Shown piece after piece: positions 14,350-45,216 of a stretch of 64,000 nt of DNA; within the stretch, counting starts at the first letter, position 1; every line of letters begins with the position of its first letter. The position numbers and the translations under genes were made by a program. The stretch comes from Patescibacteria group bacterium (GTDB taxonomy: Bacteria > Patescibacteriota > WWE3 > JAUXAW01 > JAYEID01), in the NCBI GenBank assembly GCA_034659915.1, contig JAYEID010000013.1, forward strand, positions 74,917-138,916, in the 5' to 3' direction. The notes under the pieces were generated by a model. The model was not told the DNA's origin, searched no databases, and saw nothing but the letters and a program-made list of their open reading frames with translations.

Positions 14350-17300
14350 ATGGTTAACCCTGTCCGTGATTCTAGTTCAATTGAAAAAATTTCCCAGTGG
14401 ATTGATATTTTTCTTCTTTTTGTGTTGGTTATTGCCAACTTGTTATTTCCCCTCTTTGGTCTTTCTGCGCATCTTGTAAGTTTGGTCCGGTTGTTGTTTT
14501 TGCTTTCCTTAGTTCTATTTTTTATATTTGTACGGTTGCCGCTTCTTTTCGTTGAATCGGTTGTGGGTATGCTTCGTTCCCACAAAGATAGAAAGAAGAT
14601 TTGGAGGAGTAGAAAAAATTTTCTTATTAAAAACCTTGTTTTTATTTTGGTTTTTCTTTTTGTGTTGGATTCAGTGGGTGCAAATTCTCTCCACGGCGTA
14701 ATTGGTAGAGAGTTGTTAGGGAGGAAAGGTGATCGTGGTGGAGCAGCTGATAATGGAGGGGAAGCCTACGGGTTGGTAAGGTCCAGCGAAAAAGAAATGT
14801 TTGTTCTGCGGGCAAAGCGTAAAGACTTTAAGTCTGAAGAGGACGTTACCTTTAAGGTAAGTTTTACCGATGCTTTGCCCTCCGCACCGGAAGAAAATGA
14901 GGCGTCAGGTTCTTCCTCCCAGCCCTCCTCGGCAACAACCTCTGCCACTCCCGAAACAGATTCTCCCTCTTCTGTAGATCAATCTGGTTCGGAAGAACCA
15001 ACCACCCAAGATTCTACTCCGGAGGGTACAGAAAGTGCTACTCCGGAGGCAACAATAAGCGCCCAGCCTAGTAATCAGGGGTTGTTGGGAAAAGTATTAG
15101 CGCTTTTGGAAAAATATAATATTTTTGGTTCTGTTAAAGCTCAAAGCAAAGAACCGGATATTGATGTGAAAATTTTTGATGTGGAAGGTGAAGAGACTCA
15201 CTTTCCTATTTCTGTTGAGGCTGATGAATCAGGTAACTTTGAGATAGAGGTAAGTAAGGGTAGAGCGTTTAGACCCGGGAAGTATGAGCTTAAAGTTACC
15301 TTGGTAGATCCGGAAAGTGGTGAAGAGCTTGATTCTATAGAACAAGATTTTACCTGGGGTGTTTTGGCTGTTAATACCAACAAGTCCATTTACCTGCCCC
15401 GGGAAAAAGCAAAATTGCAGATGGCTGTTTTGGATGAAGAAGGGATGATGGAATGTAACGCTAAGCTGCGCTTGGAAATCCAAAATCCGAAATCCGAAAT
15501 TCAAAACCTCTCGACGGAAGAGGGAAGCATTACCGTGAACCCTGAATGCAAGTTGCATGACTTTACTCTGGTGCCGGATTACGAGGCAGAATACCAAGTT
15601 GCCGATTCTGGTGTTTATGAGATGAAACTAACTGCGGAAACAGAAAACGGCACTTATACCATTACCGATTCTTTTGAAGTGCGCAACGAAGTCCCTTTTG
15701 ATGTGGAGAGGGAAACAGCAACCCGTATTTATCCTCCCGAGTCTTACCCCGTTACTTTTTCTATTAAGGTTAACCAAGATTTTACCGGCGTAATTGAGGA
15801 GCGTGTTCCTGCAAGTTTTGAGGTGGAATGTCCCCCTCTTTTTGATGTGGATTCGGGAACTCGTAGCAACAGTTGCCAGATCAAGGAGAAGGACGGCGTC
15901 AAAACAATATCTTGGTCTGTAAGTTGGGCAGAAGGGCAAAGGACAACCTTGTACTATCGTTTCAAGACACCTCTCATATCGCCGCAATTTTACCTTCTGG
16001 GACCTTTAACCTTCCGTAGCCTTGGCGAAGGAGGTCCTTCCACTACTGTTTTTGAAAAAAGCGAGGATGAGCTTGCACCGACGAGCTTCGAAGAAGCGAG
16101 GAGGTGGCAGCTGGCTATTGACGATACGGAAGGCGCCAACAGCCCAAGCAGCGCAGCTGAAGATACATCTGTAGGTGGTTATTCTTGGTCGGGATATACC
16201 AATGTTTATTCTAGTAATGATTCCTATGCTGAGGTTACTTTGGGTAAAGGATATATAAGTTATTATATTAAAGCTACCGGCTTCGGTTTTTCCCTTTCTA
16301 ATTGCGAGTCCATTGATGGGATTTATGTAGAGGTGGAGCGTAAATCTAACGATGCGGCTGATATGGAAGATAATTCAGTACGCCTGGTTAACGGTAGTGG
16401 TACTATTGTTGGCGATGACAAAGCAATAGCTGGTGATTGGCCAACTTCGGATACTTACCAAGGTTACGGTGGTTCTACCGATACGTGGAACGCCAGCTTG
16501 ACTTGTAGTGATGTTACTAATTCTAATTTTGGAGTTGTCTTTTCAGCGCAGAACACTGTATCTACTAAACCACGCGATATTACTGCCTCCGTTGACCACA
16601 TTCGGGTGACCGTTTATTATACTGCTGCCCCAGCTCTTGAACAGAGCCATTACCGTTGGCGCGACGACAGCTACGGTTTAAACACTGACAACGGTTGGCA
16701 GGCAAATGAAGATAACGAGTACAATGGCTTGCCGACAAATACTACCGCCCGTTTACGAATGGAAATTGACAATACCGGTGACGCGGAGGCGAGCAGTTAT
16801 CAGTACCAACTGGAATATGCTGCCCAAAGTGGGGACACTTGCGGCGGCGAAAGTTACACCGCCGTACCGGTTACTGCTTCCACAGAACCTTTTGAGATGG
16901 TTACTTCTAGCCAATACACGGACGGTGACGCTATTACTTCGGGATTTCTGACAGGTTCCGGCACTTGGGCTGATGGTGAGGGTGTGGCAGACCCCTCTAA
17001 TAAAACAGCAAGCCATAGCTTAGCTTATGGTGACTACACAGAATTTGAATATGCAATTCAGGCAACTAGTGATGCAGGCAGTGGACAGACCTACTGTTTC
17101 CGGTTAACAAATGATGGCTCGATTGAGAATTTTACTTATACTAGATACGCTGAAGCGACCATTCAAGGAGTTAGCGGTTCTTTGGGCAAATCTGCAGACG
17201 GATGGGCGGGGGCAATTCCAGTTTATATGGATGTTATTGGTTATGATTCCAGTTATTACGCCCGGGCTAAAGTGGATACGCCTGCTGCGGAAACCTACTA

Positions 17301-19977
17301 CTTTGATATGACCTGGGATAGCGGCAACAGCCGTTTTGAAGGGACAATTTATCCAGGCTCTTATTATTGCAACGGTTGTGCTGATCCAAATACCGGAACT
17401 TTTACGGTTACTGTTCAGATCGATGACGATTCCGGGTTTGGGTCAATTAATGACTCAGACAGTACGGGTAGTTTTGATACTTATATTACCCGCCGGAAAA
17501 GTTCTTTGGACACCTCTGAAAACTATACCGATATCAAACCGGTTTGGAACACCGACCATTGGGATATTGAGGTGGCTGACTTTGCCCTTTATTGCTCTTC
17601 CAGCCAAACCAATGCGGTTATTGCCGTCCCTTTTCATCCCACTACAGCTAGTATTTCTAACATTGCTGTTAGCTATGATGGTACAGCTGTGTCCCAGGGT
17701 AGTGCGGAATCAACCACTGACGCTTGGTGGTGGGACAGCGATTACCACACCTTGTTTTTAATGTTTGGTTCCTGCAGCACGACCATTGTGGATGTGGACA
17801 TTAGCTTTGATTCGGATACGGATCTTTGGGCAACGCGGTTCGACCGGGTGCAAACAGCTGACATGGGCAACCGCGAATTTTATAACGGTCTTTTTATTGG
17901 TAACCAATACTGGACAACCAGCGTGTATGGCGGCGGTCACGAAGGCGCCGGTGAGCAGGCGGAATCGCGGGCAAAACCCAGCGGGGGAGATGAGTTAACT
18001 GTTGATTGTATGGAACGTGTGGGTGTTTGGGCTGACGATGACGGGGACCCCAACACCATCGATGACCTGAACTGCGACGACTCCGGTTATTATGAATGTA
18101 ACGTTAAGTGGGCGCAGGACGAGTGGGATGATTGGCCCCTTTCGGAAGATAACGATTCGATTGTGGTGGAAACCAACGAGGACCAGACCGCAAGCACCGG
18201 TTGGCGGCAGTATTTGGATAATTCTATTAGTGTTGAACGGATCCTAACTTTTTATTCCGGCAAAATATATATTGAAAACAATTACACTATAACCAATAAC
18301 GATTCCAGTGCACATGATCTCGACCTTGTTCATGAAAGAGAACAATGGCTTGCTGGAGACTGCGCTATAAACGATAGAGGTCGTTATTATAGTGATACTT
18401 CGGATCGAACTATGGACACGAGGGTAGATATGTCTACGTTTTCTAATCCTTGGCTGACGAGTTACGACAATTACGACACCGGTTATTATGCAAGCATGGG
18501 ATTTATTTTTGAGGAAGGTGCGGAAGCGGATTACGGTATTTTTACTGACCATGCCTTTATTACTAACACTTCGGCTGAGTGGCCGGTGGTAATTGGTTCA
18601 GAAGGGCACACTGAGGCAGCTAATACCGGTTTTGAATTAAGTAACAATTCTGTTGCGGCAGGGAACAGTGTGGTTTTAAATTATTGGCAAACCCTGTATA
18701 TAGGCAGTTCTTGGGATGATGTTGCGTCTGCCTTGGATGATGCTTGTGCAGAGCTTAATGATGCTAACACCGCACCCAACAGCCCCACTTCTCTGACGCA
18801 AAAGAAGACCGACGACACAGTTCTTTCCACGGGCGACTGGACCAACGAATCTTCGGTAAAATTCACGGCAACTGTGGATGACCCCGACGATTCGGACACA
18901 CTCTACCTCTGTGTAGAAAAAGACCCCACCGGCACTGCTTTTTCTGATACCGAAGATCAGTGCGGGGAGGGGGTTTCCTACTCCGGAACAGCGGTGGAAG
19001 CAACTGTTACTATTTCTTCGCAGACCGACGATACTGAGTATCACTGGCAGGCACGGGTTAAGGACGAAGCGGGAGAATATTCATCCTGGGTTTCTTACGG
19101 GGGGAACGCGGATCCTAGTGATACAGATTACGCTATTGACACCACAGCCCCCACCGGAGGGACAGTTTACGACGGAACGGAGGCGGGGGTGGATAAGGAT
19201 TTTAACGATGAATCTCTTTCCCAGCTTTCTGCCAACTGGAGCGGGTTTGATGCTAGTGTATCCGGTTTGGATTATTACGAATATTCAATTGGTACTACCC
19301 AAGGAGGAATCGATGTTGTGGGCTGGACCAATAACGGCACATCAACTTCGGTAACTGAACAAGATTTAACTTTGCAAACCTCACAACCTTATTACTTTAA
19401 TGTGCGGGCAGTGGATAATGCAGGCAGTACCCAGTCTCCCGCAATTTCCTCCGACGGCCAGCTGGTGAGTCCCAGTATTTCTTTTAGCGTTAGCCCTTCT
19501 ACAGTTTCCTTTGATGCTTTGAACGCTTCCAACAGTTATACCGATACGGAAACCGTTACTTTGGAAACTTCCACCAACGCCTATAATGGTTATGTTGTTC
19601 GTGGTTTTGCCACCGATTATTTGCGTTCCGCTTCCGGCAACGAGACAGTTCCCGATTTTGACGGGGGAACTTACGAGGAGCCGGACGGCTGGCTTACTAG
19701 TGACCGCGGGTTTGGTTACCATTCTTCGGATGAATCTATTCAAGGAAGTAATATTTTTAATAGCGACCCTTGCCCCGGTGGCAACAGCCCGCCCTGTTAT
19801 GCGCCTTTTTCCCAAACGGCTCCCGGTGATATTGTTGCCGACCACACCGCCAATGTTACCGGCAGTCCTATTTCCAGCGAACAGTTTACGCTTACCTATA
19901 AGGTGAAAACCGACAGTATCCAGGCTTCGTCAACTTACATTACAACTATTATTTACACTATAACTGCTCAGTATTAA
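14350..19977 (+). CDS. giant (1875 aa) membrane-anchored Ser/Thr/Asp-rich cell-surface protein
   Basis: Several N-terminal TM helices, a Ser/Thr/Pro/Glu-rich linker (aa 180-240) and a long beta-rich, low-Cys extracellular region. The last roughly 160 aa (SISFSVSPSTVSFDA...SSTYITTIIYTITAQY) are homologous to the C-terminus of the 21149-22186 protein. Confidence 0.7.
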   Translation: MVNPVRDSSSIEKISQWIDIFLLFVLVIANLLFPLFGLSAHLVSLVRLLFLLSLVLFFIFVRLPLLFVESVVGMLRSHKDRKKIWRSRKNFLIKNLVFILVFLFVLDSVGANSLHGVIGRELLGRKGDRGGAADNGGEAYGLVRSSEKEMFVLRAKRKDFKSEEDVTFKVSFTDALPSAPEENEASGSSSQPSSATTSATPETDSPSSVDQSGSEEPTTQDSTPEGTESATPEATISAQPSNQGLLGKVLALLEKYNIFGSVKAQSKEPDIDVKIFDVEGEETHFPISVEADESGNFEIEVSKGRAFRPGKYELKVTLVDPESGEELDSIEQDFTWGVLAVNTNKSIYLPREKAKLQMAVLDEEGMMECNAKLRLEIQNPKSEIQNLSTEEGSITVNPECKLHDFTLVPDYEAEYQVADSGVYEMKLTAETENGTYTITDSFEVRNEVPFDVERETATRIYPPESYPVTFSIKVNQDFTGVIEERVPASFEVECPPLFDVDSGTRSNSCQIKEKDGVKTISWSVSWAEGQRTTLYYRFKTPLISPQFYLLGPLTFRSLGEGGPSTTVFEKSEDELAPTSFEEARRWQLAIDDTEGANSPSSAAEDTSVGGYSWSGYTNVYSSNDSYAEVTLGKGYISYYIKATGFGFSLSNCESIDGIYVEVERKSNDAADMEDNSVRLVNGSGTIVGDDKAIAGDWPTSDTYQGYGGSTDTWNASLTCSDVTNSNFGVVFSAQNTVSTKPRDITASVDHIRVTVYYTAAPALEQSHYRWRDDSYGLNTDNGWQANEDNEYNGLPTNTTARLRMEIDNTGDAEASSYQYQLEYAAQSGDTCGGESYTAVPVTASTEPFEMVTSSQYTDGDAITSGFLTGSGTWADGEGVADPSNKTASHSLAYGDYTEFEYAIQATSDAGSGQTYCFRLTNDGSIENFTYTRYAEATIQGVSGSLGKSADGWAGAIPVYMDVIGYDSSYYARAKVDTPAAETYYFDMTWDSGNSRFEGTIYPGSYYCNGCADPNTGTFTVTVQIDDDSGFGSINDSDSTGSFDTYITRRKSSLDTSENYTDIKPVWNTDHWDIEVADFALYCSSSQTNAVIAVPFHPTTASISNIAVSYDGTAVSQGSAESTTDAWWWDSDYHTLFLMFGSCSTTIVDVDISFDSDTDLWATRFDRVQTADMGNREFYNGLFIGNQYWTTSVYGGGHEGAGEQAESRAKPSGGDELTVDCMERVGVWADDDGDPNTIDDLNCDDSGYYECNVKWAQDEWDDWPLSEDNDSIVVETNEDQTASTGWRQYLDNSISVERILTFYSGKIYIENNYTITNNDSSAHDLDLVHEREQWLAGDCAINDRGRYYSDTSDRTMDTRVDMSTFSNPWLTSYDNYDTGYYASMGFIFEEGAEADYGIFTDHAFITNTSAEWPVVIGSEGHTEAANTGFELSNNSVAAGNSVVLNYWQTLYIGSSWDDVASALDDACAELNDANTAPNSPTSLTQKKTDDTVLSTGDWTNESSVKFTATVDDPDDSDTLYLCVEKDPTGTAFSDTEDQCGEGVSYSGTAVEATVTISSQTDDTEYHWQARVKDEAGEYSSWVSYGGNADPSDTDYAIDTTAPTGGTVYDGTEAGVDKDFNDESLSQLSANWSGFDASVSGLDYYEYSIGTTQGGIDVVGWTNNGTSTSVTEQDLTLQTSQPYYFNVRAVDNAGSTQSPAISSDGQLVSPSISFSVSPSTVSFDALNASNSYTDTETVTLETSTNAYNGYVVRGFATDYLRSASGNETVPDFDGGTYEEPDGWLTSDRGFGYHSSDESIQGSNIFNSDPCPGGNSPPCYAPFSQTAPGDIVADHTANVTGSPISSEQFTLTYKVKTDSIQASSTYITTIIYTITAQY

Positions 19978-31159: not shown

Positions 31160-31681
31160 ATGGCATTTGAAAAAGATTTTAGAAAGCATCCATCCCAACG
31201 AGTGGGAGTTTTTGTAGATGTTCAAAATATGTATTACTCAGCAAAAAACCTTTTTGATGGTGCGAAGGTAGATTTTGGGCAGGTCCTTTCTGCTGCTGTT
31301 TCTGGGCGCCAACTAATTCGGGCAATGGCTTATGTAATTCGTGCTGATGTAGGAGAAGAAGAAGCTTTTTACGAGGCACTTCAAAAACAAGGTTACGAAG
31401 TTATGGCTAAGGAATTGCAGGTTTTTGCTGGTGGTGCAAAAAAAGGTGATTGGGATGTAGGATTGGCAATTGATGCTATTCGTGCTGCTGACAAGTTGGA
31501 TACTATTGTGTTAGTTGGTGGTGATGGCGACTTTGCTCCTTTGGTAGATTATTTGCAAAACAATAAAGGCTGTCGTGTGGAAGTGGTTGCGTTTGAAAAG
31601 ACTTGTTCCAGTAAGTTAATTGAGGAGGCGGATGACTTTTTGGATTTGGGTAGTGATAAAGAGCGGTTTTTGATAGAGTAA
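31160..31681 (+). CDS. NYN/LabA-like (PIN-fold) domain protein
   Basis: VGVFVDVQNMYYSAK, IVLVGGDGDFAPLVDYLQNNKGCRVEVVAF; strong SD AAGGGAGGTGA. Confidence 0.65.
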   Translation: MAFEKDFRKHPSQRVGVFVDVQNMYYSAKNLFDGAKVDFGQVLSAAVSGRQLIRAMAYVIRADVGEEEAFYEALQKQGYEVMAKELQVFAGGAKKGDWDVGLAIDAIRAADKLDTIVLVGGDGDFAPLVDYLQNNKGCRVEVVAFEKTCSSKLIEEADDFLDLGSDKERFLIE

Positions 31682-31881
31682 CGGATTTAAGATATGTTTT
31701 CGCTTCAAGCATTTATTCTTATCCATTACGTGCTATAAAATCCCAAAATTCAAATTACGAGTTCCAAAGGAATATAAAATTCTGAATTGCAATTTTTAGA
31801 TTTAAATATGGTTGTAATTTGGTAATTGGTGTTTGTGATTTGTTTGTATCTTGGTATTTGGGATTTGGTGCTTAAGTTATA

Positions 31882-33774
31882 ATGCGCAAACTTTTAGTAG
31901 GCTTTTGTATTGCAATTGTTTCAGTTTTAATTTTCCCCTCTAACCTTTTCGCTAAGGATTATTCTATTGGTGCAGTCGATATAAATGTTGATATTTACCA
32001 AGACCGTTCTTTTGAGATAACTGAATCCCGTGTATATAACTTTGACGGGAGCTTTTCTTGGGCAGATTTGTGGATCCCAACTAGGGTCACTCGCAACGGG
32101 AACAGTTATGACGTTTCTATTTCTAACTTTGAAGTTCGGGATGAGACTGGAAATTTGCTTGAAACAGAGACAAGTCAAAGAGAGGGTAAATTTTATGCTA
32201 AGTGGTTTTATTCTGCCCAAAATGAGAACAAAACTTTTATCTGGACCTACCATGTAGAAGGTGATGCAATTAAGAAATATGAGGATATTGCAGAGTTTTA
32301 TTGGCGGGTAGTTGGGGATGAATGGGAAAAATCAGCTGGACCTGTGTCTGTTCTTGTTCGGTTGCCTTCGGGGGCAGAGGAAGAAGAAATTCAAGTTTAT
32401 GGTCATTTGCCAACAGATGCGCTCTTAGATATTGGTGGTCCCAAGAAAACTGACTCAGAAATTATTGACTCGCAAACTGTTCGGTTTACTGTTCCTAGGC
32501 TGCCTGCAGAAACCTATTTGGAGGTGCGAGTTCTCTTTCCCCCACAGCTTGTTTCTGGTCCAATCTCGGGAAAAAAATCTTTGGAAGAAATAAAAGTAGA
32601 GGAGAAGCAATTTGTAGAACAAACAGTTGCTACTTCTAAAAGAAGGCAGCTGGTTGCTAAGGCAGTTCTGGGGTATGTGTTTATTGTTATTCCTCTTTCT
32701 ATTATTGTTTGGCTTTACTTTTATTGGCAGGCTTGGAAAAGGAAGGGCAGAGAGTACCAGTTTCCAGATATTCCCAAATATGTGCGGGAGTTACCTTCGG
32801 AGTTACCGCCAGCTATGGTTGATGTTCTTTTGAGGCAGGGCGGCAAGCCCAGTACTGATGCTTTTGTAGCTACTATTTTTGACTTAGCGCGAAGAGGGTA
32901 TATCTCTTTGAAAGATGAAACAGAGATAAAAGCCGGTCTTCTACAAACTAGAAAAAAGATAAAGACAAATCTGATCCGCCAAGAAAAGGACATTAACGAG
33001 CTACGTGACTTTGAACAGATGATTTTAGAAATTCTTTTTAAGACTATTCCTGAGGGAAAGGATGGTAGCTTGTTTGGTGTTGTTGGTGCTGCTTTGGGTC
33101 AGGGTCAGGGTGAAGATCAAGCTGAATCTTCGTCGGAAGATGTTATACAGTTTGGCGATGTTGAAAGCTATATTAAAAATCACCAGCAGAGTTTCCGCAG
33201 GTGGTTTGAGCAGTGGCAAAAGGAGGTTGTGAATGAGGCAGAGGTTGGCGGTTATTTGGAAAAAGAGGGGAAAGAGCTTGCTAAGAAATTTTGGGTTATG
33301 TCAGCTTTGCTTTTATTTTTTGGTTCTCCAGTTATTCTTTTGGGAATTTTTCTTATTCCTAATCTCAAGCGGTGGAAAAAGGAGTGGGCAAGGGAAGCAG
33401 CGGAGTGGGTAGCTTTTCGTAAATTTTTGGATGACTTTTCTAGTTTTGAAGAGATTCCTCCCGAAGCTTATAAACTGTGGGAGTATTATTTGGTTTACGG
33501 TGTTCTTTTTGGGAATGCTGAGGCGATTTTGAATGCTTTGCCCGTGATTTTTGAAAACCCCCGCGCTGCGCAGCCTACTTGGTACTTAACAACTTCTGGT
33601 GGAAAAATTTCGGGAGCATCTCTTTCTTCAATTTCTTCTATGACTAATAGTATTGCCAATTTAAACTCTTCAATGCGTTCTGTTTCAGCCTCTTCTATGT
33701 CCTCTGGTAGTGGGGGTGGTTTTTCTGGTGGTGGGGGAGGGGGTGGTGGGGGTGGTGGAGGCGGTGCTGGCTAA
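31882..33774 (+). CDS. DUF2207-like membrane protein with C-terminal poly-Gly tail
   Basis: Signal peptide, roughly 230-aa extracytoplasmic beta domain, TM helices at about 260 and 470, C-terminal SGSGGGFSGGGGGGGGGGGGGAG as seen in DUF2207 proteins. Confidence 0.5.
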   Translation: MRKLLVGFCIAIVSVLIFPSNLFAKDYSIGAVDINVDIYQDRSFEITESRVYNFDGSFSWADLWIPTRVTRNGNSYDVSISNFEVRDETGNLLETETSQREGKFYAKWFYSAQNENKTFIWTYHVEGDAIKKYEDIAEFYWRVVGDEWEKSAGPVSVLVRLPSGAEEEEIQVYGHLPTDALLDIGGPKKTDSEIIDSQTVRFTVPRLPAETYLEVRVLFPPQLVSGPISGKKSLEEIKVEEKQFVEQTVATSKRRQLVAKAVLGYVFIVIPLSIIVWLYFYWQAWKRKGREYQFPDIPKYVRELPSELPPAMVDVLLRQGGKPSTDAFVATIFDLARRGYISLKDETEIKAGLLQTRKKIKTNLIRQEKDINELRDFEQMILEILFKTIPEGKDGSLFGVVGAALGQGQGEDQAESSSEDVIQFGDVESYIKNHQQSFRRWFEQWQKEVVNEAEVGGYLEKEGKELAKKFWVMSALLLFFGSPVILLGIFLIPNLKRWKKEWAREAAEWVAFRKFLDDFSSFEEIPPEAYKLWEYYLVYGVLFGNAEAILNALPVIFENPRAAQPTWYLTTSGGKISGASLSSISSMTNSIANLNSSMRSVSASSMSSGSGGGFSGGGGGGGGGGGGGAG

Positions 33775-35138
33775 TTACTAGATACCTCAATAAAACTTCC
33801 ACTAAGGATTTTTGCGCTTGGACCCATTTGCTTCTTGTCTAAGAGAACGGTGCTTTTTGCAGGGCGGTTGGTAGCTTTTAAGTAATCTTTTATAGTTGAT
33901 CCCTCAGCTACAGGAACTACTCCTAGTTCTTTATCAATAACATATATATCTGGCTTTAAAACTTTTTCTGCAAGCTCACCCAAAAATTGCTCACTTTCTT
34001 CTTTCATAAAGTTTTCTTGCCATTCAATAAGTTTCTGTGTCCAGTACCGAATTTTTTCTACTTTTTCAGAATCTGTTTGTGCATGGGTTAGATGGATTGC
34101 TAAGCCAAAATCTGCACGTTGGTGCATGTTCTTGTCTCGAATTTGTATCTCAAAAATGGAGCCTGAGTTTTTGTCAAAAACGCGGGTATGCAAAGCTTCG
34201 TAACCGTTGGGTTTTGGTTGAGCAATAAAGTTACTAATTCCCACATGAGGTACGGGTTTGTAGTTTTCGTGAATAATTCCCAAAGCAGTGTAGCAATCTC
34301 TTTTTTTGGGAACTACTACACAGGTTATTACTAAGTCGTATACTTCGTCTAAATTTTTATTAATTTCTTTGCGGTGAAGTTTAGCAAATAGACTGTACCA
34401 ATTTTTTCTGCGAGTTTCAGTTTTAATAAGTTTTAGCGGTTCTTTTTTAAAAATATGCTCTAATTCAAAGTTTATCGCTTTAATTATCTCTTCCCTTTTA
34501 TCCATTGCTTGTTTTGCATACTCTGTTACCCATTGAAAGTCTTTTGGTCTTTGGGTTTTAAAACACAGTTCACGTAGGTCACCACTTACCTCGCTCATTC
34601 CCATCTTGTATGCTAGGGGAGCGTATACAGATCTTGTTTCTTCCGAAAGCTTGCTTTGGGCTTGTGGAGAAAGGTATTGGATAGTTTTCATATTGTGCAA
34701 TCTGTCTGCTAATTTTATAACTACTACCCGAAGATCTTTAGACATGGCTAAAAACATTTTCCTCAGGTTATTGGCGAACTTTTCTTTCTTATTTCTATGA
34801 AAATCAACCTCGCTTACTTTTGTTACACCATCTACCAGGTTAGTGATTTGGGATCCAAACTCCTTCCTGATATTACTGAGGGTAAGGGGTGTATCTTCCA
34901 CTACGTCATGAAGCAACCCTGCGCAAATGCTTTCGGTGTCTTGTTCCCATTTATTAAGGTTTTTTGCTGTTTCAAGAGGGTGAATAAAGTAAGGTTCGCC
35001 AGATTTTCTTAAGTCGCCCTGGTGTGCTTTCTGCGAAAAATCTAAAGCCTTTTTTATTTTTCGCAAATTAGGGTTTTGGGGGTTGTTTTTTAGTTCTTTT
35101 AGAAAAATGTTTCTTGCAGTGTCGAGATTATATTCCAT
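33771..35138 (-). CDS. short bifunctional-type RelA/SpoT homologue (HD hydrolase + synthetase + TGS)
   Basis: HD block HPLETAKNL...AGLLHDVVEDT, synthetase block YKPVPHVGISNFIAQPKPNGYEALHTRVF...EIQIRDKNMHQRADFG, TGS-like C-terminus; 455 aa, no ACT domain. Confidence 0.75.
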   Translation of the reverse strand: MEYNLDTARNIFLKELKNNPQNPNLRKIKKALDFSQKAHQGDLRKSGEPYFIHPLETAKNLNKWEQDTESICAGLLHDVVEDTPLTLSNIRKEFGSQITNLVDGVTKVSEVDFHRNKKEKFANNLRKMFLAMSKDLRVVVIKLADRLHNMKTIQYLSPQAQSKLSEETRSVYAPLAYKMGMSEVSGDLRELCFKTQRPKDFQWVTEYAKQAMDKREEIIKAINFELEHIFKKEPLKLIKTETRRKNWYSLFAKLHRKEINKNLDEVYDLVITCVVVPKKRDCYTALGIIHENYKPVPHVGISNFIAQPKPNGYEALHTRVFDKNSGSIFEIQIRDKNMHQRADFGLAIHLTHAQTDSEKVEKIRYWTQKLIEWQENFMKEESEQFLGELAEKVLKPDIYVIDKELGVVPVAEGSTIKDYLKATNRPAKSTVLLDKKQMGPSAKILSGSFIEVSSN

Positions 35139-35221
35139 AGTTTGTGCTATTTTCTAATTCCTCCCTGTTTTTGTCAATAATTCTCTTAAATTACTAGTAA
35201 TGTTTATGGTACCATGCCTAT

Positions 35222-37006
35222 ATGATTTTAAAGAAGTTGAAAAAAAGTCTGAAGTCATTTTTACAAATTTTTCTTACGCGGGATTTTTGGATTTATTTTT
35301 CTAGTTCCTTGCTATTAGCTTTTTCAATAATTTTCTTTGCGTATCATTTAGCTTACGCTAGGAAAACTATTCCTGGAGTGCGAATGTTGGGTTTGGATTT
35401 AAGTAATAAGAGTGAACGCCAAACACTATCTCTACTAAAACCGCGTTTGGTGGAACTGGAATCTGCTAATTTGCAATTTTCTTATCAGGATAAGGTATTT
35501 TCTAAGAGTATGTATGAATGGGGTGTTCGTTATGATGCAACCTCTTCTGCCCAAAAAGCATTTGCTTTTGGAAGAAGTGGTCATGTTTTTAAGACAACTA
35601 AGGATAAGTTTCAGGCTGGTACGGCGGGAGTTTCACTTCTACCAGTAGCTTCCATTGACGAACAATCTTTTTCCGCTACTTTGTCTGAAGTTGCTGCTGA
35701 TGTTGGCAAGCCAAAGGAGAATCCCTATTTTGCACTGGTTGAGGGTTCTTTGGAAGTTGTACCTGGTGAGAGTGGTTACGAGATTGATGAGAATAGCTTC
35801 CAAGAACTGATCTTGCGGGCGGCGCAGGAGCTTGACTTTTCTCAAAAAGAATTACCAATAGAAGAAGTGGAGCCAGACTACACTAAAGCAGATCTGGAAA
35901 ATTTAGAGGTTGAGGTAGCGGAACTGTTGGTTTCCTCGCCCAAGCTTACGTTTGGATCTCGCACTTGGACCCTGTCTGAGCAAGAAATTCTTAAGCTTTT
36001 GGATTTCGAAGTAGCACCTGAAAATCCAAACAAAATACAAATTACTACTAATGAGGAGGGGCTTAGTTCTTTTGTTTCCTCCTTAGCAGCCTCCATAAAC
36101 CAACCAATGCGCGGCGGTACTTTTGAGCTTCAGGATGGGCGTGTTATTGATTTTGCTTTACCCCAGCCAGGGTATCACTTGAAAGAAGAAGAGGCAAAAC
36201 AAGTAGTTTCGGAAGTTGTTCTTGATCTCGAGAAAAGCGAAGTTGAATTGCCGGTGGAAGTTAAGGATGTACAGGCTAATGCAAATCAGTATGGAATTCG
36301 TTCTTTATTAGGAACAGGATCTTCCAATTTTAGCGGTTCTAGTTTGGGTAGAATTCATAATATTGACCTTGCCTCGTCCCGGCTGGATGGTATTTTGATT
36401 CCTCCTGGCGAAACTTTTTCTTTCAATGAGACGTTGGGTGACGTAAGCTCAGAAACCGGATACAAGACCTCCTATGTTATAAAGGATGGGCGTACTATTT
36501 TAGGGGTGGGTGGTGGAGTTTGTCAGGTTTCAACTACTATGTTCCGGGCAGCTCTAAATGCGGGGTTGCCAATTGTGGAGCGCGCAGCACACGCCTACCG
36601 AGTTCACTATTACGAGCAGGATAAGGGACCGGGGTTTGATGCTACTGTGTATTCCCCCTCGCCAGATGTTAAGTTTGAAAATGATACCCCAGCTCATGTG
36701 TTAATCAAACGTTATTACAACCCATCTACCTCTACCTTGCAGTTTTCTTTCTATGGTACTTCTGATGGGCGTACTGTTAATATTGTGGGTCCCATAATTC
36801 ATTCTCAGACCCCTCCCCCGGAGCCAGAGTATATTGAAGATGAATCACTAGAACCGGGAGAAACAAAGCAGGTTGATTGGGCAGCTTGGGGTGCTAGGGT
36901 TACAGTGAAAAGAAAAGTGACCCGGGGTGGGGAAGTTTTGCATGAAGATAATTTTTATAGCAGTTACCAACCTTGGCGAGCTGTGTATTTAGTAGGGAAG
37001 GAATGA
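35222..37006 (+). CDS. VanW-family protein
   Basis: N-terminal TM, then SGYEIDE... and the VanW core GVGGGVCQVSTTMFRAALNAGLPIVERAAHAYRVHYY. Confidence 0.7.
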   Translation: MILKKLKKSLKSFLQIFLTRDFWIYFSSSLLLAFSIIFFAYHLAYARKTIPGVRMLGLDLSNKSERQTLSLLKPRLVELESANLQFSYQDKVFSKSMYEWGVRYDATSSAQKAFAFGRSGHVFKTTKDKFQAGTAGVSLLPVASIDEQSFSATLSEVAADVGKPKENPYFALVEGSLEVVPGESGYEIDENSFQELILRAAQELDFSQKELPIEEVEPDYTKADLENLEVEVAELLVSSPKLTFGSRTWTLSEQEILKLLDFEVAPENPNKIQITTNEEGLSSFVSSLAASINQPMRGGTFELQDGRVIDFALPQPGYHLKEEEAKQVVSEVVLDLEKSEVELPVEVKDVQANANQYGIRSLLGTGSSNFSGSSLGRIHNIDLASSRLDGILIPPGETFSFNETLGDVSSETGYKTSYVIKDGRTILGVGGGVCQVSTTMFRAALNAGLPIVERAAHAYRVHYYEQDKGPGFDATVYSPSPDVKFENDTPAHVLIKRYYNPSTSTLQFSFYGTSDGRTVNIVGPIIHSQTPPPEPEYIEDESLEPGETKQVDWAAWGARVTVKRKVTRGGEVLHEDNFYSSYQPWRAVYLVGKE

Positions 37007-37090
37007 GAGGTTGCCTCTTTAACCTCCGGGGGCCTATTTTTATCTATTCAGTTTAGTTTTTTCTGATTACAAGTTACCAGTTACGAATTA

Positions 37091-38554
37091 CTAGTTACCT
37101 CTTTTTAGCGCCTTTTTAATCTTACTCTTCGCTTCGTTGGTCTTAGCGCAATTTAACCAATCAGGTGAGGGTCCTTTACGGCTTTTATCGGTGAGGATTT
37201 CTACTACTTGTCCGGTTTGCAGTTTGGAATCTACCGCAATTAATTTTCCATCTGCCTTTGCTCCAGTGCAGCTGTTTCCGAGATCAGAGTGTATCTTGTA
37301 GGCAAAATCAATAGGAGTTGCTCCTTGAGGCAAGTCTAAAACATCTCCTTTGGGTGTGAGTACAAAGACCCTATCTGTATAAACATTTATTTTAAGTGCT
37401 TCTTCGAATTCCTTATTTCCTCGTGTTTTTTCTTTCCATTTAACTAAGTCTTTTAACCAGGATGTGTATTCCTTTGGTGCTCTTAATTGGCTTCCTTTTG
37501 TTCTTCCTAGTTCTTTATAAAAGGCGTGTGAGGCGGGACCGTATTCGTTGTATTCGTGCATTTTCCACGTACGGATTTGGAATTCGGCGATTCTGTTTTC
37601 CTCACAAAACACAGTGGTGTGAAGAGATTGGTATCCATTTGGTTTGGGATGGGCGATATAATCGCTAAACCTTTCCCCCGGTTCCCAAAAATTGTATACA
37701 ATATCCAAAGTTTTATAGCACTCATCAGTTGTGTTTATAAGGATTCGAAAAGCTTGGACATCGTGCAATCTTTTCAGGTATTCCCGGCTTGTTTCTCCTG
37801 CTTGTTTCTCGCTCTGCATTTTTCTATAAATGCTGTAAAAGTGTTTAGGACGTCCGTAAATTTCTGCGTTGATTCCCTGCTTTCTCAATTCTTTTCTTAT
37901 CTTTTTGCGCACCTTTTGAATATATTCGTTGCGGCCTTCTCTGGTTTCTTCTAGGAAGTTTTGAATTTCGGTGTGCGCTTTGTGGTTAAGGTACTTAAAA
38001 GCCCAGTCTTCCAACTGCCATTTGTAATAGTAAACGCCCAGGCGTTCAGCAATTGGCGCGTATATATCAAGAGCTTTTTGGGCTGTTTCTTCGCGTAGTT
38101 CTTCCGGTAAGCTTTCTATTGTTTTTAAGCTGTGTACTTTTTCTGCCAGTCGGATGAGCATTACGCGGATATCTTTGACTGTTGCCAAAAGAAGTTTTCT
38201 AAAATTTTCGGTTTGGGTCCAGCCGCCTGTTTTGGTTTTTACTTTTTTAATTACTGAAACCCCGTCAACAAGTTCGGCTACCTCTTTCCCAAAGTTTTTT
38301 TGTAGTGATTCTTTGGTTGTTTTTTCGTGTTCAATTGTGTCATGGAGAAGTCCCGCAGCAATGGCTGTACTCTCCATTTTTATATCTGCGAGAAGGTGGG
38401 CAACCTCCAGGCAGTGTTCAATTAACGGTTTCCCGCTTAAACGTTCTTCCCCTTCGTGGGCTTTTTGTGCATATTTGTAGGCTTTTTCAACTAGCCCAAA
38501 ATCCGCATTGGGGTTATATTTCTTAATTTTGTTTTTCAGTTTGGTAATGCTCAT
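37091..38554 (-). CDS. second short RelA/SpoT homologue (HD + synthetase + TGS)
   Basis: AAGLLHDTIEH HD motif, YIAHPKPNGYQSLHTTVF...EFQIRTWKMHEYNEYG synthetase, TGS block VFVLTPKGDVLDLPQGATPIDFAYKIHSDLG; 487 aa. Confidence 0.75.
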   Translation of the reverse strand: MSITKLKNKIKKYNPNADFGLVEKAYKYAQKAHEGEERLSGKPLIEHCLEVAHLLADIKMESTAIAAGLLHDTIEHEKTTKESLQKNFGKEVAELVDGVSVIKKVKTKTGGWTQTENFRKLLLATVKDIRVMLIRLAEKVHSLKTIESLPEELREETAQKALDIYAPIAERLGVYYYKWQLEDWAFKYLNHKAHTEIQNFLEETREGRNEYIQKVRKKIRKELRKQGINAEIYGRPKHFYSIYRKMQSEKQAGETSREYLKRLHDVQAFRILINTTDECYKTLDIVYNFWEPGERFSDYIAHPKPNGYQSLHTTVFCEENRIAEFQIRTWKMHEYNEYGPASHAFYKELGRTKGSQLRAPKEYTSWLKDLVKWKEKTRGNKEFEEALKINVYTDRVFVLTPKGDVLDLPQGATPIDFAYKIHSDLGNSCTGAKADGKLIAVDSKLQTGQVVEILTDKSRKGPSPDWLNCAKTNEAKSKIKKALKRGN

Positions 38555-38696: not shown

Positions 38697-39899
38697 TTAG
38701 CCCTGGGTAATTTTGAGGAAAGAATTTTTGCCGTAGCGAATTAGGCATGGTTTGGCGATCAAGGTTTTGGGATCAGTTATGTTTTTTCCGTCTATTTCCA
38801 CTGCGTTTTGTTGGACGCGGCGCTTCGATTCACTCTTTGAGGGTAGGGCACTGGATTGTTTTAGGAGTTCATCTAGTTCTAAACCCTCTTTTGGGAGTTT
38901 AAAGGTGGGAACTGCTTCTATTTTTCCTTCTTCTTCTCCAAAAATTTTCTTTGTGTCGCGTGCTACTTTTTTTGCAGTATCTTCTCCGTGGACAAGTTTT
39001 GTAACTTCAAATGCCAACTTCTTTTGCGCTTCTCGCGGATCTCTGAGAAGGTCCTCTATTTTCTCTAATGGTAAAAATGTTAGGGTTTTTAGCATAATGG
39101 GAACAATTTCGTCTGGTACTCCTTGAAGATATTGGTAGAAATCAAATGGATTAGTTTTTTCTGGATCCAACCAAATTGTTCCTTCAGCAGTTTTTCCCAT
39201 TTTCTCACCACTTGGTGTGGTTATTAATGGGTGGGTAATTGCGAACGCATCTTCACCATGTTTCCTGCGGATAAGATCAACGCCGGCTAAGATATTTGCC
39301 CATTGATCGTTGCCTCCAACCTGGATCTTGCAATTGTGGTTTTCAAAAAGATATAGAAAATCCCACCCTTGAAGTACAGGGTAACAAAATTCTAGCAGGG
39401 AAAGATGGCTTTCTGATTCCAAACGCCGGGAAAAAGTTTCCATTTTAACCATTTCGTTAACTGAAAAGTGGCGGGCAACTTTGAGTAAGAAATCATCTAG
39501 AAATCGAAATTTCGAGAGCCACTTATTATTATCAAGCATTAAAGCCTTGTTTTCACTATCAAAACTAATCAATCCAATATTTTCAACTTGTTTTTTTAGT
39601 GATTCCGCGTTTTCGGCAACAGTCTCAGGGTCTAATAATTTTCTCGAAAATGCCTTGTCGGCGGGATCTCCAATCTTACCTGTACCCCCGCCAATGAGAA
39701 ATATAATCTTGTGTCCGGCTTCTTGTAAGTGGTGAAGCATCATCAGTGGCATAAGGTGTCCTAGGGTGAAACTGTCCGCCGAAGGGTCAAATCCTTGATA
39801 AATTGTAGCCCTTTCCTTTGCGAGTAAAGAGGCAACCCCCTCGTCATTCGAGGTCTGGCTTATGTACCCACGTTTTTTTAGCTTTTGGAGGATGTCCAT
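38697..39899 (-). CDS. tyrS: tyrosyl-tRNA synthetase
   Basis: TLGHLMPL (HIGH), KMGKT (KMSKS), C-terminal S4-like region; 400 aa. Confidence 0.9.
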   Translation of the reverse strand: MDILQKLKKRGYISQTSNDEGVASLLAKERATIYQGFDPSADSFTLGHLMPLMMLHHLQEAGHKIIFLIGGGTGKIGDPADKAFSRKLLDPETVAENAESLKKQVENIGLISFDSENKALMLDNNKWLSKFRFLDDFLLKVARHFSVNEMVKMETFSRRLESESHLSLLEFCYPVLQGWDFLYLFENHNCKIQVGGNDQWANILAGVDLIRRKHGEDAFAITHPLITTPSGEKMGKTAEGTIWLDPEKTNPFDFYQYLQGVPDEIVPIMLKTLTFLPLEKIEDLLRDPREAQKKLAFEVTKLVHGEDTAKKVARDTKKIFGEEEGKIEAVPTFKLPKEGLELDELLKQSSALPSKSESKRRVQQNAVEIDGKNITDPKTLIAKPCLIRYGKNSFLKITQG

Positions 39900-39972
39900 A
39901 AAAATACAACTAGAAATGTTATAACTACAACCCTACAAAGGCTTAGCCTTTGGAAGCCTGTTCTTACAGTGT

Positions 39973-40986
39973 TTATGAAGGTAGGACTTTGTCTAGGTCC
40001 ATGGCTTTTTTGGCTAGTTTTAAAGTTTCTGCGGCTTCGGCCCGAGCTTTTTTTGTTCCCTCATTCAGGATTTTTTCAATTAATTCTGGCTGTTTTTTGT
40101 ATTTTTTACGCCGTTCTCGAATGGGGTCAAGAAATTCGTTTATTGCTCGGGCTAACTTTTCTTTTACCTCTACATCTCCTACTTTACCTTTCCTATATCT
40201 TTCTTTCAAATCCTTTACTTCCTCTTTTTCGGGATTAAAAGCGTTGTGGTATATAAATACAGGATTACCTTCTACTTTGCCTGGATCTGTGGGATGGATG
40301 CGGTTAGGGTCCGTGTACATACCCATAACCTTTTCTTCTACAACTTCTGCTTTATCAGAAAGGTAAATACAATTATCCAACGATTTACTCATTTTTGCAT
40401 TACCATCAAGGCCGACTAGGGTGGGCACTTCACCAATTAAAGGTTCTGGTTCGGGGAAGGTTTCACCATAGAGATTGTTAAAGCGCCGTGCAATTTCTCG
40501 GGTTAGCTCTACATGAGATTGCTGGTCTTTTCCTACTGGCACAAGATCAGCGCGGACCATTAAGATATCTGCTGCTTGTAGTACGGGGTAGGTAAGTAGA
40601 CCTAGGGAAGGTTTCTTAATATTTAAATCGCGCATTACTTCCTTTAGCGTTGGTATTCTCTGACAACGGGGGACGCTGACCAGCATTGAAAAAAGTAAGG
40701 ACAGATAAGTAACCTCGGGGATTTGAGATTGAACGTAGATTGTTGACTTTTCTGGGTCAACTCCTACTGCTAGGTAATCCAAAACCATTTCGTGAATATT
40801 TTGGGGAAGTTTTTCTAAATTTTCCTTTTCTGGGGCTGTGGTTAAGGTGTGTAAGTCGGCAATGATGAAGAAGCACTCGTAGTCATCCTGCAACCGCACT
40901 CGGTTTTTAAGCGAGCCAACATAATGCCCCAAGTGTAATTTCCCCGTTGGTCTGTCACCTGTTAGTATTCTTTTTTTGCTATTCAT
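39973..40986 (-). CDS. trpS: tryptophanyl-tRNA synthetase
   Basis: [28 protein letters not shown]; 337 aa. Confidence 0.9.
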
Positions 40987-44266: not shown

Positions 44267-44746
44267 ATGATAGCAATGAAAGAAAAGCAGAAGAAAATTT
44301 TGACCCCGGGAGGGTACAAAAAACTGAAAGAAGAGTACGAAGAACTAACTCAGGAGAAAAGAAAAGAAATAGCTGAGAAAATTCGCGAAGCTCGCGAGCA
44401 AGGGGATCTTTCGGAAAACGCTGCATATAAGGCAGCTAAGGAAGAGCAAGTGTTTGTAGAGCGGCGGATTGATGAACTTGAGACTGTTTTGCGGCAGGCC
44501 AAAGTTGTTGAGCGTAGTAATGATGCTTGTGGTAAAGTCGACCTAGGGTGCAAAGTGCAAGTTTATTTGGAAGGACAGAATCATGAGTTTTTTATTGTGG
44601 GTGCCGAGGAGGCAAACCCAACTGAGGGCAAGATTTCCTATGAGTCGCCCTTGGGGCAAGCGCTAATGGGTAAAGCTCCGGGGGAGCGGGTTGAAGTAGA
44701 AACTCCAGGTGGTAGAATAACTTATATTGTAAAGGGGATTGAATGA
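44267..44746 (+). CDS. greA: transcription elongation factor GreA
   Basis: N-terminal coiled coil with GDLSENAAYKAAKEEQ, C-terminal FKBP-like KISYESPLGQALMGKAPGERVEVETPGG. Confidence 0.85.
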   Translation: MIAMKEKQKKILTPGGYKKLKEEYEELTQEKRKEIAEKIREAREQGDLSENAAYKAAKEEQVFVERRIDELETVLRQAKVVERSNDACGKVDLGCKVQVYLEGQNHEFFIVGAEEANPTEGKISYESPLGQALMGKAPGERVEVETPGGRITYIVKGIE

Positions 44747-45216
44747 TAAATTTAGAAAAAACATACTATTTAACCCCAGAGGGGTTGGAAAAATTTAAGG
44801 AAAAGCTGGAGCATTTGGAAGAAAATGTTATGGATGATGTGCGAAGTGAGTTAAGAGTTGCTCAGGAAGAAGAGCCAGACCCTACCGAAAATCCTGGTCT
44901 TCGAGATGCAATTAGTCGCCAGCAACAAGCGGAGGAAGAAATTGAGGAGCTGAAAAATGTCCTTAATAATTACGAATTAATTGAAGGAGGCTCGGGTGAT
45001 AAGGTTGAACTAGGATCGGTTGTGGAAGTCAAGGTAGATGGGGAGAAGGACAAATTCCAAATTGTTGGTTCGTTGGAAGCAGATCCTGTTAATGGTAAAA
45101 TTTCTTATGAATCTCCAGTGGGGGAAGCACTTTTGGGTGCTAAGCCTGGTGAAGAAGTTGAAGCGGGAGGTTCTATAGTTAGAGGAGCTACTTATAAGGT
45201 TTTATCTGTTAATTAA
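44743..45216 (+). CDS. GreA/GreB-family paralogue (second copy, ATGA overlap)
   Basis: YLTPEGLEKFKEKLEHLEE coiled coil, acidic tip, C-terminal KISYESPVGEALLGAKPGEEVEAGG. Confidence 0.75.
   Translation: MINLEKTYYLTPEGLEKFKEKLEHLEENVMDDVRSELRVAQEEEPDPTENPGLRDAISRQQQAEEEIEELKNVLNNYELIEGGSGDKVELGSVVEVKVDGEKDKFQIVGSLEADPVNGKISYESPVGEALLGAKPGEEVEAGGSIVRGATYKVLSVN

Follow-up and report, generated by a model that had tools for sequence, protein, structure and literature searches.

Two naturally truncated long RelA/SpoT homologues flanking a VanW gene in a Patescibacteria genome: a candidate split (p)ppGpp system

Two truncated long-class RelA/SpoT homologues around a VanW gene

The stringent response of bacteria has its master switches in the long RelA/SpoT homologues (RSHs), and their regulation is now explained through the zinc-finger domain (ZFD), the RRM (ACT) domain and a switch between compact and elongated states. 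The RSHs of the Candidate Phyla Radiation (CPR) are natural minimal versions, consisting only of HD (hydrolase), synthetase (SYN) and TGS domains. Here we describe two such genes in a 64-kb stretch of DNA (hereafter the window) from a Patescibacteria group bacterium (assembly GCA_034659915.1, contig JAYEID010000013.1, positions 74,917 to 138,916). An open reading frame (ORF) of 455 amino acids (aa), which we call P1, lies at 33771-35138 on the minus strand, and one of 487 aa, P2, at 37091-38554 on the same strand; between them, a 594-aa ORF of the VanW family occupies 35222-37006 on the plus strand. An initial annotation, made from the sequence alone, had recognized two long-RSH-type genes flanking vanW, and both coordinates and domain content agree with it: Pfam HD_4 (PF13328) and RelA_SpoT (PF04607) match P1 with 153.4 and 88.1 bits and P2 with 156.6 and 112.3 bits, above the gathering cut-offs of 27.2 and 27 bits, respectively. 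P1 and P2 are therefore RSHs of the 'long' class, with HD and SYN domains in one chain. Against the NCBIfam profile TIGR00691 (spoT_relA; cut-off 499.2 bits), P2 scores 539.5 bits, whereas P1 remains below the cut-off with 386.9 bits and covers profile positions 1-383 of 687. The two proteins are 27% identical, in keeping with their earlier description as clearly diverged copies.

Neither protein has a helical domain, ZFD or RRM (ACT) domain detectable by Pfam or alignment, which bears out the reported absence of the C-terminal ACT/RRM region. P2 stops where the helical domain begins, at about residue 485 of Bacillus subtilis Rel, and P1 at the end of a TGS-like unit. There is no coding room nearby for a split-off C-terminal gene, with 84 nucleotides (nt) between P2 and the VanW stop codon and a 4-nt overlap between P1 and a convergent DUF2207 gene. 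Orthologues are equally short (452-466 aa for the P1 type, 478-494 aa for the P2 type), so the truncations are genuine and not assembly artefacts; a split or frameshifted full-length Rel was considered and is ruled out by these short orthologues together with the lack of coding space downstream. The absence of ACT is in itself nothing unusual here: many HD-Syn-TGS RSHs of about 480-500 aa occur in the CPR, and RshC provides a precedent (PMC3153485). NCBI lists the exact P1 sequence, from a 184-kb contig, under the name 'HD domain-containing protein [Patescibacteria group bacterium]'. The exact 487-aa P2 product is recorded only from Logan assemblies and not at NCBI, even though P1 of the same metagenome-assembled genome is there; the deposited annotation may use another P2 start or omit the gene.

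Residue states of the hydrolase, synthetase and TGS domains

Residues were mapped with HMMER alignments to Rel_Seq (1vj7), whose numbering is used throughout, and to B. subtilis Rel (6yxa), and with a MAFFT alignment of 84, then 242, RSHs. As a reference we used 111 columns with at least 95% invariance in 205 ordinary RSHs (51 in HD, 41 in SYN, and 19 in TGS and beyond). In the hydrolase-only SpoT of Acinetobacter baumannii (SpoT_Ab), described in 2022, substitution of Y51, E82, D83 or N147 (Y50, E81, D82 and N148 of Rel_Seq) yields a hydrolase-inactive enzyme, and K140 and R144 (K141 and R145) hold the 3′-pyrophosphate (PMC9974481). The HD_4 domain of P2 (aa 25-174; 38033..38482, minus strand) carries the changes K45L, Y50L, D82H, K141R, D144E, R145K and N148S; by alignment, it thus lacks three of the four residues that hydrolysis has been shown by experiment to need (Y50, D82 and N148). 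Y50L, D82H/K, K141R, D144E and R145K are present in all 28 members of the P2 clade, and N148S in 12 of the 28, including the P2 of the window. At the invariant HD columns, 15 of 51 deviate in this protein and 10 of 51 across its clade, compared with clade-wide deviations of 4 of 41 in SYN and 1 of 19 in TGS and beyond.

The synthetase domain of P2 (aa 234-348; 37511..37855, minus strand) is canonical at G240, R241, K243, K251, D264, R269, K304, N306, Y308, H312, E323 and Q325, with the motif GRPKH. Its TGS domain (aa 396-455; 37190..37369, minus strand; Pfam TGS 2.2e-21) carries the conserved His equivalent to H420 of B. subtilis Rel and H432 of Escherichia coli RelA, which stacks on the CCA end of tRNA; the substitutions H420E and H432E abolish activation by deacylated tRNA (PMC7797070). 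Judged by its residues, P2 has everything known to be needed for tRNA-triggered synthesis, except the ZFD and RRM. The best PDB match of P2 is B. subtilis Rel 13-483, at 441 bits versus 334 bits for E. coli RelA, and by sequence P2 is placed outside the RelA clade, its relatives being Rel proteins of the CPR and Firmicutes. Across P2-related short-RSH clusters, position 82 drifts (H/K/E/S/Y), R141/E144/K145 are fixed and a motif of the form E-x-D-D appears at positions 295-298; in the clusters that are 40-45% identical to P2, residue 82 is variable (E/S/Y; H81-E82 in P0305), and R141/E144/K145, E-x-D-D and the TGS His are shared.

A separate pattern is seen among these relatives. In distant members of the 487-aa clade, mostly (P0126-P0148; also P0244, P0288 and P0305), a change of R269 to M or T, Lys265 and E-x-D-D occur together, and the subclade to which the window's P2 belongs (P0121-P0125) retains R269 and a basic or neutral 295-298 motif. 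This linkage may reflect compensatory covariation in the ATP site.

In P1, the HD_4 domain (aa 31-181; 34596..35048, minus strand) is canonical at R44, K45, Y50, H53, H77, D78, E81, D82, K141, D144, R145, N148 and T151, and the P1 clade deviates at 5 of the 51 invariant HD columns, none of them catalytic. Its synthetase domain (aa 242-352; 34083..34415, minus strand) is altered by G240T, H244N, A267I, R269C (Cys273 in the numbering of P1 itself), T328D, E336D, W343L and Y345H; R269C, A267I and six more of the 41 invariant SYN columns are altered in all four members of the P1 clade. R277 of Rel_Tt, the equivalent of R269, coordinates the substrate and is replaced in the synthetase-dead SpoT_Ab (PMC9974481). 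Changes at R295, K297 and G240 were dropped as signs of decay in the P1 synthetase, as the same positions vary in ordinary CPR RSHs. The view that hydrolase and synthetase motifs are apparently intact in both copies therefore fails, on Y50L, D82H, D144E, R145K and N148S in the P2 HD and R269C/A267I in the Syn2 motif of P1. Inspection of the catalytic residues also found one canonical catalytic site kept in each copy, so that neither protein is a pseudo-enzyme in HD and SYN alike or a member of some other HD family.

At the C-terminus of P1, 14 of the 19 invariant TGS-and-beyond columns are altered in its clade. Pfam found no TGS domain in P1, nor in the isolated 87-residue tail at E<=10, and an RSH-specific TGS profile built without the P1 clade gave P1 0.3 bits, where shuffled tails reach 7.4. 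A match of 48.8 bits to our first RSH-TGS profile was rejected as circular, because that profile included the P1 clade. The column of the tRNA-CCA-sensing His is Asn in P1. In an AlphaFold2 model of P1 (pLDDT, the predicted local distance difference test score, 90.2; pTM, the predicted template modelling score, 0.88), residues 397-453 (33780..33950, minus strand) form a beta-beta-alpha-beta-beta unit with pLDDT of 85-92, the order expected of a TGS-like beta-grasp, and Foldseek aligned about 450 columns of the model to the TGS-containing structures 6yxa, 7qpr and 5kpv (query TM-score 0.78 for 5kpv). This beta-grasp is a prediction and not proof, because the input alignment of the model held TGS-bearing homologues; it suggests that the C-terminus is a vestigial TGS-like unit with a residual beta-grasp fold. 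The TGS domain that had been assigned to both proteins thus stands for P2, and in P1 it is represented by no sequence signal and by the modelled beta-grasp only. By its residues, P1 still has everything that hydrolysis requires, and the His that reads tRNA is gone. P1 scores 141 bits against SpoT_Ab and 264 bits against Rel enzymes, and its sequence places it outside the SpoT clade, with the CPR short RSHs. P1 also lacks the ZFD and RRM of the complete C-terminal region with which SpoT forms its compact tau-state.

Pairwise Nei-Gojobori ratios of nonsynonymous to synonymous substitution rates (dN/dS) were computed for P1 between the window and the related locus L003, and for P2 between the window and the related locus L089. 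They are 0.11 (HD), 0.075 (SYN) and 0.25 (tail) for P1, and 0.11 (HD), 0.054 (SYN) and 0.084 (TGS) for P2. Identities among the P1 orthologues are 90/87/77% for SYN, 85/80/63% for HD and 63/68/50% for the tail. Every domain of both proteins is under purifying selection (dN/dS 0.05-0.25). The altered domains should therefore be functional in some way, either catalytically with altered properties or as regulatory modules, comparable to the pseudo-HD of RelA and the pseudo-SYNTH of SpoT_Ab.

Two lineages and a possible division of labour

Among 5.8 billion clustered proteins, P1 has three close relatives (80, 79 and 62% identity), none with a Pfam TGS domain, so that the P1 type comprises four clusters. 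Its next matches, at about 40% identity, are ordinary RSHs, including many CPR proteins of about 490 aa, with which P1 shares the signatures GISDFIAQPKPNGY and RKK..YSL. In a neighbour-joining tree of the HD and SYN columns (320 columns, 100 bootstraps), a crude method in which long-branch effects are possible, the P1 clade is monophyletic in 100 of 100 replicates and sister to the ordinary CPR RSHs in 82 of 100, and P1 and P2 form a clade in none of the 100. The P2 clade comprises about 28 clusters (52-87% identity, 478-494 aa), which collapse to a single representative at 50% identity among 1.84 billion proteins; a scan of genome contigs with P2 returned only Rel loci of Firmicutes and Dehalococcoidia and zero CPR genomes.

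In five distant P2-clade loci (L085-L088 and L090), the RSH gene directly follows recJ, often with an overlap of a few bases, and in one of the distant loci a toxin-antitoxin pair and then aspS come after recJ-RSH. Two ordinary CPR RSHs, P0009 and P0053, occupy the same recJ-RSH-aspS slot as the P2-type genes, and recJ-RSH followed by aspS is seen in L090, L092 and L093, a slot common to both CPR RSH types (L092 has two tandem recJ-like genes). The arrangement is reminiscent of the recJ-(apt)-rel linkage in Firmicutes. No recJ is present in the 64-kb window, so in this lineage P2 no longer sits in the ancestral slot. Given that the slot is common to the P2 type and the ordinary CPR RSHs, P2 is most simply a resident, vertically inherited Rel with a remodelled HD domain, and P1 would be a second copy that stems from the 'ordinary' CPR type as a xenologue or as an old paralogue. 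The initial annotation had called the two genes paralogues; an origin by lineage-specific duplication is unsupported, in view of their failure to group in the tree and of the slot that the P2 type shares with ordinary CPR RSHs. Every P1-clade locus with enough flanking sequence also carries a P2-type gene. Directly upstream of P2 and on the same strand (38697..40986) lie genes for TrpRS (39973-40986) and TyrRS (38697-39899), with gaps of 73 and 142 nt, an arrangement also found in L089; a trpS-tyrS-P2 co-transcription unit is possible.

From domain content, residue states, clade-wide conservation, purifying selection, non-sister phylogeny and synteny, which are directly observed, we infer the enzymatic activities and the regulatory logic set out here. 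With moderate confidence, we propose that P1 and P2 form a functionally split (p)ppGpp system, assembled from two lineages of naturally truncated CPR long RSHs, in which labour is divided in a convergent RelA-like and SpoT-like manner. Uncharged tRNA would be sensed through the intact TGS domain of P2, with its CCA-sensing His, and P2 would respond by synthesizing (p)ppGpp; its HD domain would probably be a non-catalytic regulatory pseudo-hydrolase, as in RelA. Located behind trpS-tyrS, P2 would make the alarmone when uncharged tRNA accumulates. P1 would be the hydrolase-dominant, SpoT-like partner that removes it. In SpoT_Ab, the TGS hairpin and the Core scaffold the HD active site, and TGS deletion sharply lowers hydrolysis (PMC9974481); the TGS/Core scaffold is likewise needed for hydrolysis in B. 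subtilis Rel (PMC9974481, PMC7797070). Because the TGS hairpin and Core support the HD active site of SpoT, we suggest that the Core and TGS-like unit of P1 serve as such a scaffold, in a TGS that no longer reads deacylated tRNA. The P1 synthetase would be weak, altered or differently regulated, or just regulatory, and independent of tRNA. As for its history, a less certain possibility is an independent origin of the split in Patescibacteria, not by duplication but by the joining of two RSH lineages lacking the C-terminal domains (CTD): the resident recJ-linked RSH would already have been synthetase-only, with a pseudo-hydrolase domain, and a second CPR-lineage RSH, recruited as a hydrolase, would then have lost tRNA sensing and the Syn2 Arg.

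Several observations weigh against this division of labour. The P2 HD domain retains the metal ligands H53, H77 and D78 as well as E81, is as conserved as the P2 synthetase domain and, taken alone, is closer to B. subtilis Rel (166 bits) than to the RelA pseudo-HD (84 bits); at positions 295-298, the P2 of the window has R-F-S-D and not the acidic E-x-D-D, the RelA-type replacement of R-x-K-D. Given the retained ligands and E81, the conservative D144E change and this conservation, a modified yet active hydrolase is possible. In P1, SYN is the most conserved domain among orthologues and retains R241, K243, K251, D264, K304, N306, Y308, H312, E323 and Q325, so that P1 may be a genuine bifunctional enzyme. 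R269C as proof of a dead P1 synthetase was rejected: many RelA-like P2-clade proteins, presumed active synthetases, also lack R269 (M/T, with K at 265), and R269C alone therefore does not prove inactivation. Most P2-clade loci have no partner hydrolase nearby; if these genomes truly lack one, hydrolysis by the P2-type HD must persist in them, or they must clear the alarmone by another route. No further RSH, small alarmone synthetase (SAS) or small alarmone hydrolase (SAH) gene lies in the window, a count that covers 64 kb of the 184-kb contig and leaves room for such genes elsewhere. It is mainly because the altered domains are not decaying that our confidence in a strict synthetase-only and hydrolase-only pair is just moderate.

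The same observations feed an explanation in which P1 and P2 are two bifunctional Rel enzymes that are regulated differently, P2 hydrolysing through a modified site (His/Lys82, Glu144) and P1 making and breaking the alarmone without tRNA input, so that there would be two inputs and no split. The P2-type gene is the sole RSH in every distant locus examined, the catalytic core of the P1 synthetase is intact, and the dN/dS of the P2 HD domain fits a working enzyme. We nevertheless consider this explanation rather unlikely, given that P2 is altered at three of the four sites where substitution leaves SpoT_Ab without hydrolase activity, that position 82 varies across related clusters in a manner unlike a catalytic residue, and that most of the P2 clade has the RelA-type E-x-D-D. 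A further explanation holds that P1 was acquired horizontally and does not serve P2 as a housekeeping partner, its HD domain acting on (p)ppApp or another 3′-pyrophosphorylated or phosphorylated nucleotide, or detoxifying alarmone-based toxins. P1 does come from a different RSH lineage than P2, is very rare, lies outside the ancestral recJ-RSH-aspS slot of its nearest relatives and has its own conserved promoter; but all ppGpp-contacting HD residues of Rel and SpoT are canonical in P1, the window contains no toxin-like SAS gene, and the GC content of the region is unremarkable relative to the rest of the window. This explanation seems to us improbable.

The position of vanW had also been read as a hint that envelope stress is coupled to alarmone signalling, through the cell-wall enzyme encoded between the two RSH genes. 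VanW domains are the catalytic domains of L,D-transpeptidases (PMC11348318), the VanW and P1 genes diverge from a conserved 83-bp spacer that contains a conserved 10-bp palindrome, and the order trpS-tyrS-P2 / VanW / P1 / DUF2207 / NYN is kept in L001-L003 and L089. However, VanW is convergent with P2, and the alternating strands mean that P2, VanW and P1 are not one operon; the order is kept only among close relatives (78-87% protein identity, dS 0.6-1.3), in which synteny is expected by descent. VanW is absent near six distant P2-clade loci, which have recJ, toxin-antitoxin, aspS or other neighbours (the sixth, L091, spans just 2 kb), and near two loci of the nearest ordinary CPR RSHs. In L004, which encodes P0004, the 62%-identical P1-type protein, the downstream neighbours differ and the contig ends 71 bp upstream of the P1-type gene, so VanW adjacency is unscorable there. 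Envelope-stress coupling through VanW is thus unsupported, and we regard it as very improbable.

The divided pair proposed here resembles RelA and SpoT of Beta- and Gammaproteobacteria in having two long RSHs per genome, complementary degeneration and degenerate domains that remain under selection. The RelA-like features lie in P2 (altered HD, intact synthetase, TGS His), and the SpoT_Ab-like ones in P1 (canonical HD, compromised synthetase motif, TGS as a scaffold). Unlike RelA and SpoT, P1 and P2 did not arise by within-lineage duplication, and both lack the helical, ZFD and RRM domains; the P2 HD is far less degenerate than that of RelA, with its metal ligands kept, and the P1 synthetase far less so than that of SpoT_Ab, with D264 and Q325 kept. 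Second long-RSH copies (RshA-D), including a RelA-like diverged HD in RshB and the TGS-truncated RshC, were described in 2011, and RshC and RshD may have been acquired horizontally (PMC3153485). P2 shares with RshC of Bacillus a truncation within the helical domain with TGS kept, a match by architecture alone. Compared by description, RshA-D occur in Bacillus, Bacteroidetes, Actinobacteria and Deltaproteobacteria beside a full-length Rel, whereas here both copies are truncated, the host is a member of the Patescibacteria and one TGS is vestigial. The ordinary CPR RSHs of about 480-500 aa (P0053 from Candidatus Woesebacteria GW2011_GWA1_37_8, P0016 from Moraniibacteriota) have the same truncated HD-Syn-TGS architecture but keep a canonical HD, the Syn2 Arg and the TGS His, and are predicted to be bifunctional Rel enzymes; of these features, P1 lacks R269 and the TGS signal, and P2 the HD residues. 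Natural counterparts of engineered B. subtilis Rel truncations (delta-ZFD-RRM 1-583, NTD 1-373, the latter the N-terminal domains), P1 and P2 differ from them in stopping at other points, earlier than the 1-583 form (P2 at about residue 485, P1 at the end of TGS), and in being evolved, selected forms; B. subtilis Rel without ZFD and RRM hydrolyses more and is compromised in synthesis, and the NTD-only form nearly loses hydrolysis (PMC7797070, PMC7058999).

The pair is thus not a new kind of system: as read here it works like RelA/SpoT and is a member of neither family. What appears to be new, on sequence grounds, is the combination of two partners that both lack helical, ZFD and RRM domains, derive from two non-sister CPR lineages and include one TGS below sequence detection. 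We found no study specific to RSH, ppGpp or RelA in CPR/Patescibacteria in the searchable literature, the coverage of which is incomplete. The locus can be viewed as a natural experiment, with one copy predicted to be synthetase-only and the other predicted to be hydrolase-dominant with its TGS as a scaffold. If this holds, the split between synthetase and hydrolase would evolve repeatedly and could be assembled from non-sister genes, and these small, tractable proteins would allow one to ask how much of Rel regulation needs the CTD. A whole CPR clade would then have a RelA-like enzyme that works without the ZFD and RRM, domains thought to anchor RelA/Rel on the ribosome, which raises the question of how partner-less relatives degrade (p)ppGpp and, more broadly, of alarmone turnover in ultra-small symbionts.

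The VanW protein, the P1 promoter region and other features of the window

The VanW-family protein (35222..37006, plus strand) matches Pfam VanW (1.6e-42), PG_binding_4 (7.8e-19) and, below the cut-off, G5 (0.0015). This is the PG4-VanW-G5 architecture of the Clostridioides difficile L,D-transpeptidases Ldt4 and Ldt5, in which VanW-type catalysis uses a Cys-His-Asp triad (C286 in Ldt4, C298 in Ldt5; PMC11348318); the VanW domain of the window has a Cys inside a conserved-looking GGGVCQVS stretch.

In the spacer between P1 and VanW, a sigma-70-like candidate promoter for P1 (TTGACA-17 nt-GAAAAT; 35149..35177, minus strand) lies about 10 nt before the ATG and is almost invariant across four related loci. 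Support for it comes from this four-locus conservation, because the scans as a whole were no better than shuffles for promoters (16 versus 14.4 expected) or terminators (15 versus 12.0). The same alignment indicates that the 466-aa annotation of the relative P0003 starts inside the promoter and that P0003 really begins where the 455-aa form does. Between the −10-like element of P1 and its ATG there is no visible Shine-Dalgarno-like sequence (window 35138-35177, AGCACAAACTATG), which, with the short distance between the two, suggests that the P1 mRNA is leaderless or nearly so. On the VanW side of the spacer, 6 nt upstream of the VanW start codon, the sequence ATGGTACCAT forms a perfect 10-bp palindrome (window 35206-35215) that is invariant in four loci (the window, L003, L089 and L001), with varying flanking bases; it could be an operator, or merely part of the VanW translation-initiation region.

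Two genes lie downstream of P1, at 31160-33774: one encodes an NYN-domain protein of 173 aa, the other a 630-aa DUF2207 membrane protein whose C-terminal tail is long and rich in Gly and Ser. The 4-nt convergent overlap with P1 involves the stop codons of both genes, and the NYN and DUF2207 genes are conserved in L001/L002. In L089, two adjacent, overlapping genes of the GreA/GreB family (155 and 139 aa) lie at 2029-2912, and the window has, probably in the equivalent position (44267-45216), an overlapping pair of ORFs of similar size (159 and 157 aa). A 1875-aa ORF spans 14350-19977 on the plus strand. GC skew is positive in every 2-kb bin of the window (1-64000) and the cumulative skew rises monotonically; the whole stretch seems to belong to a single replichore. 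Skew is weakest (0.03-0.07) at 34-42 kb, coinciding with the run of minus-strand genes that comprises P1, P2, tyrS, trpS and dinB.

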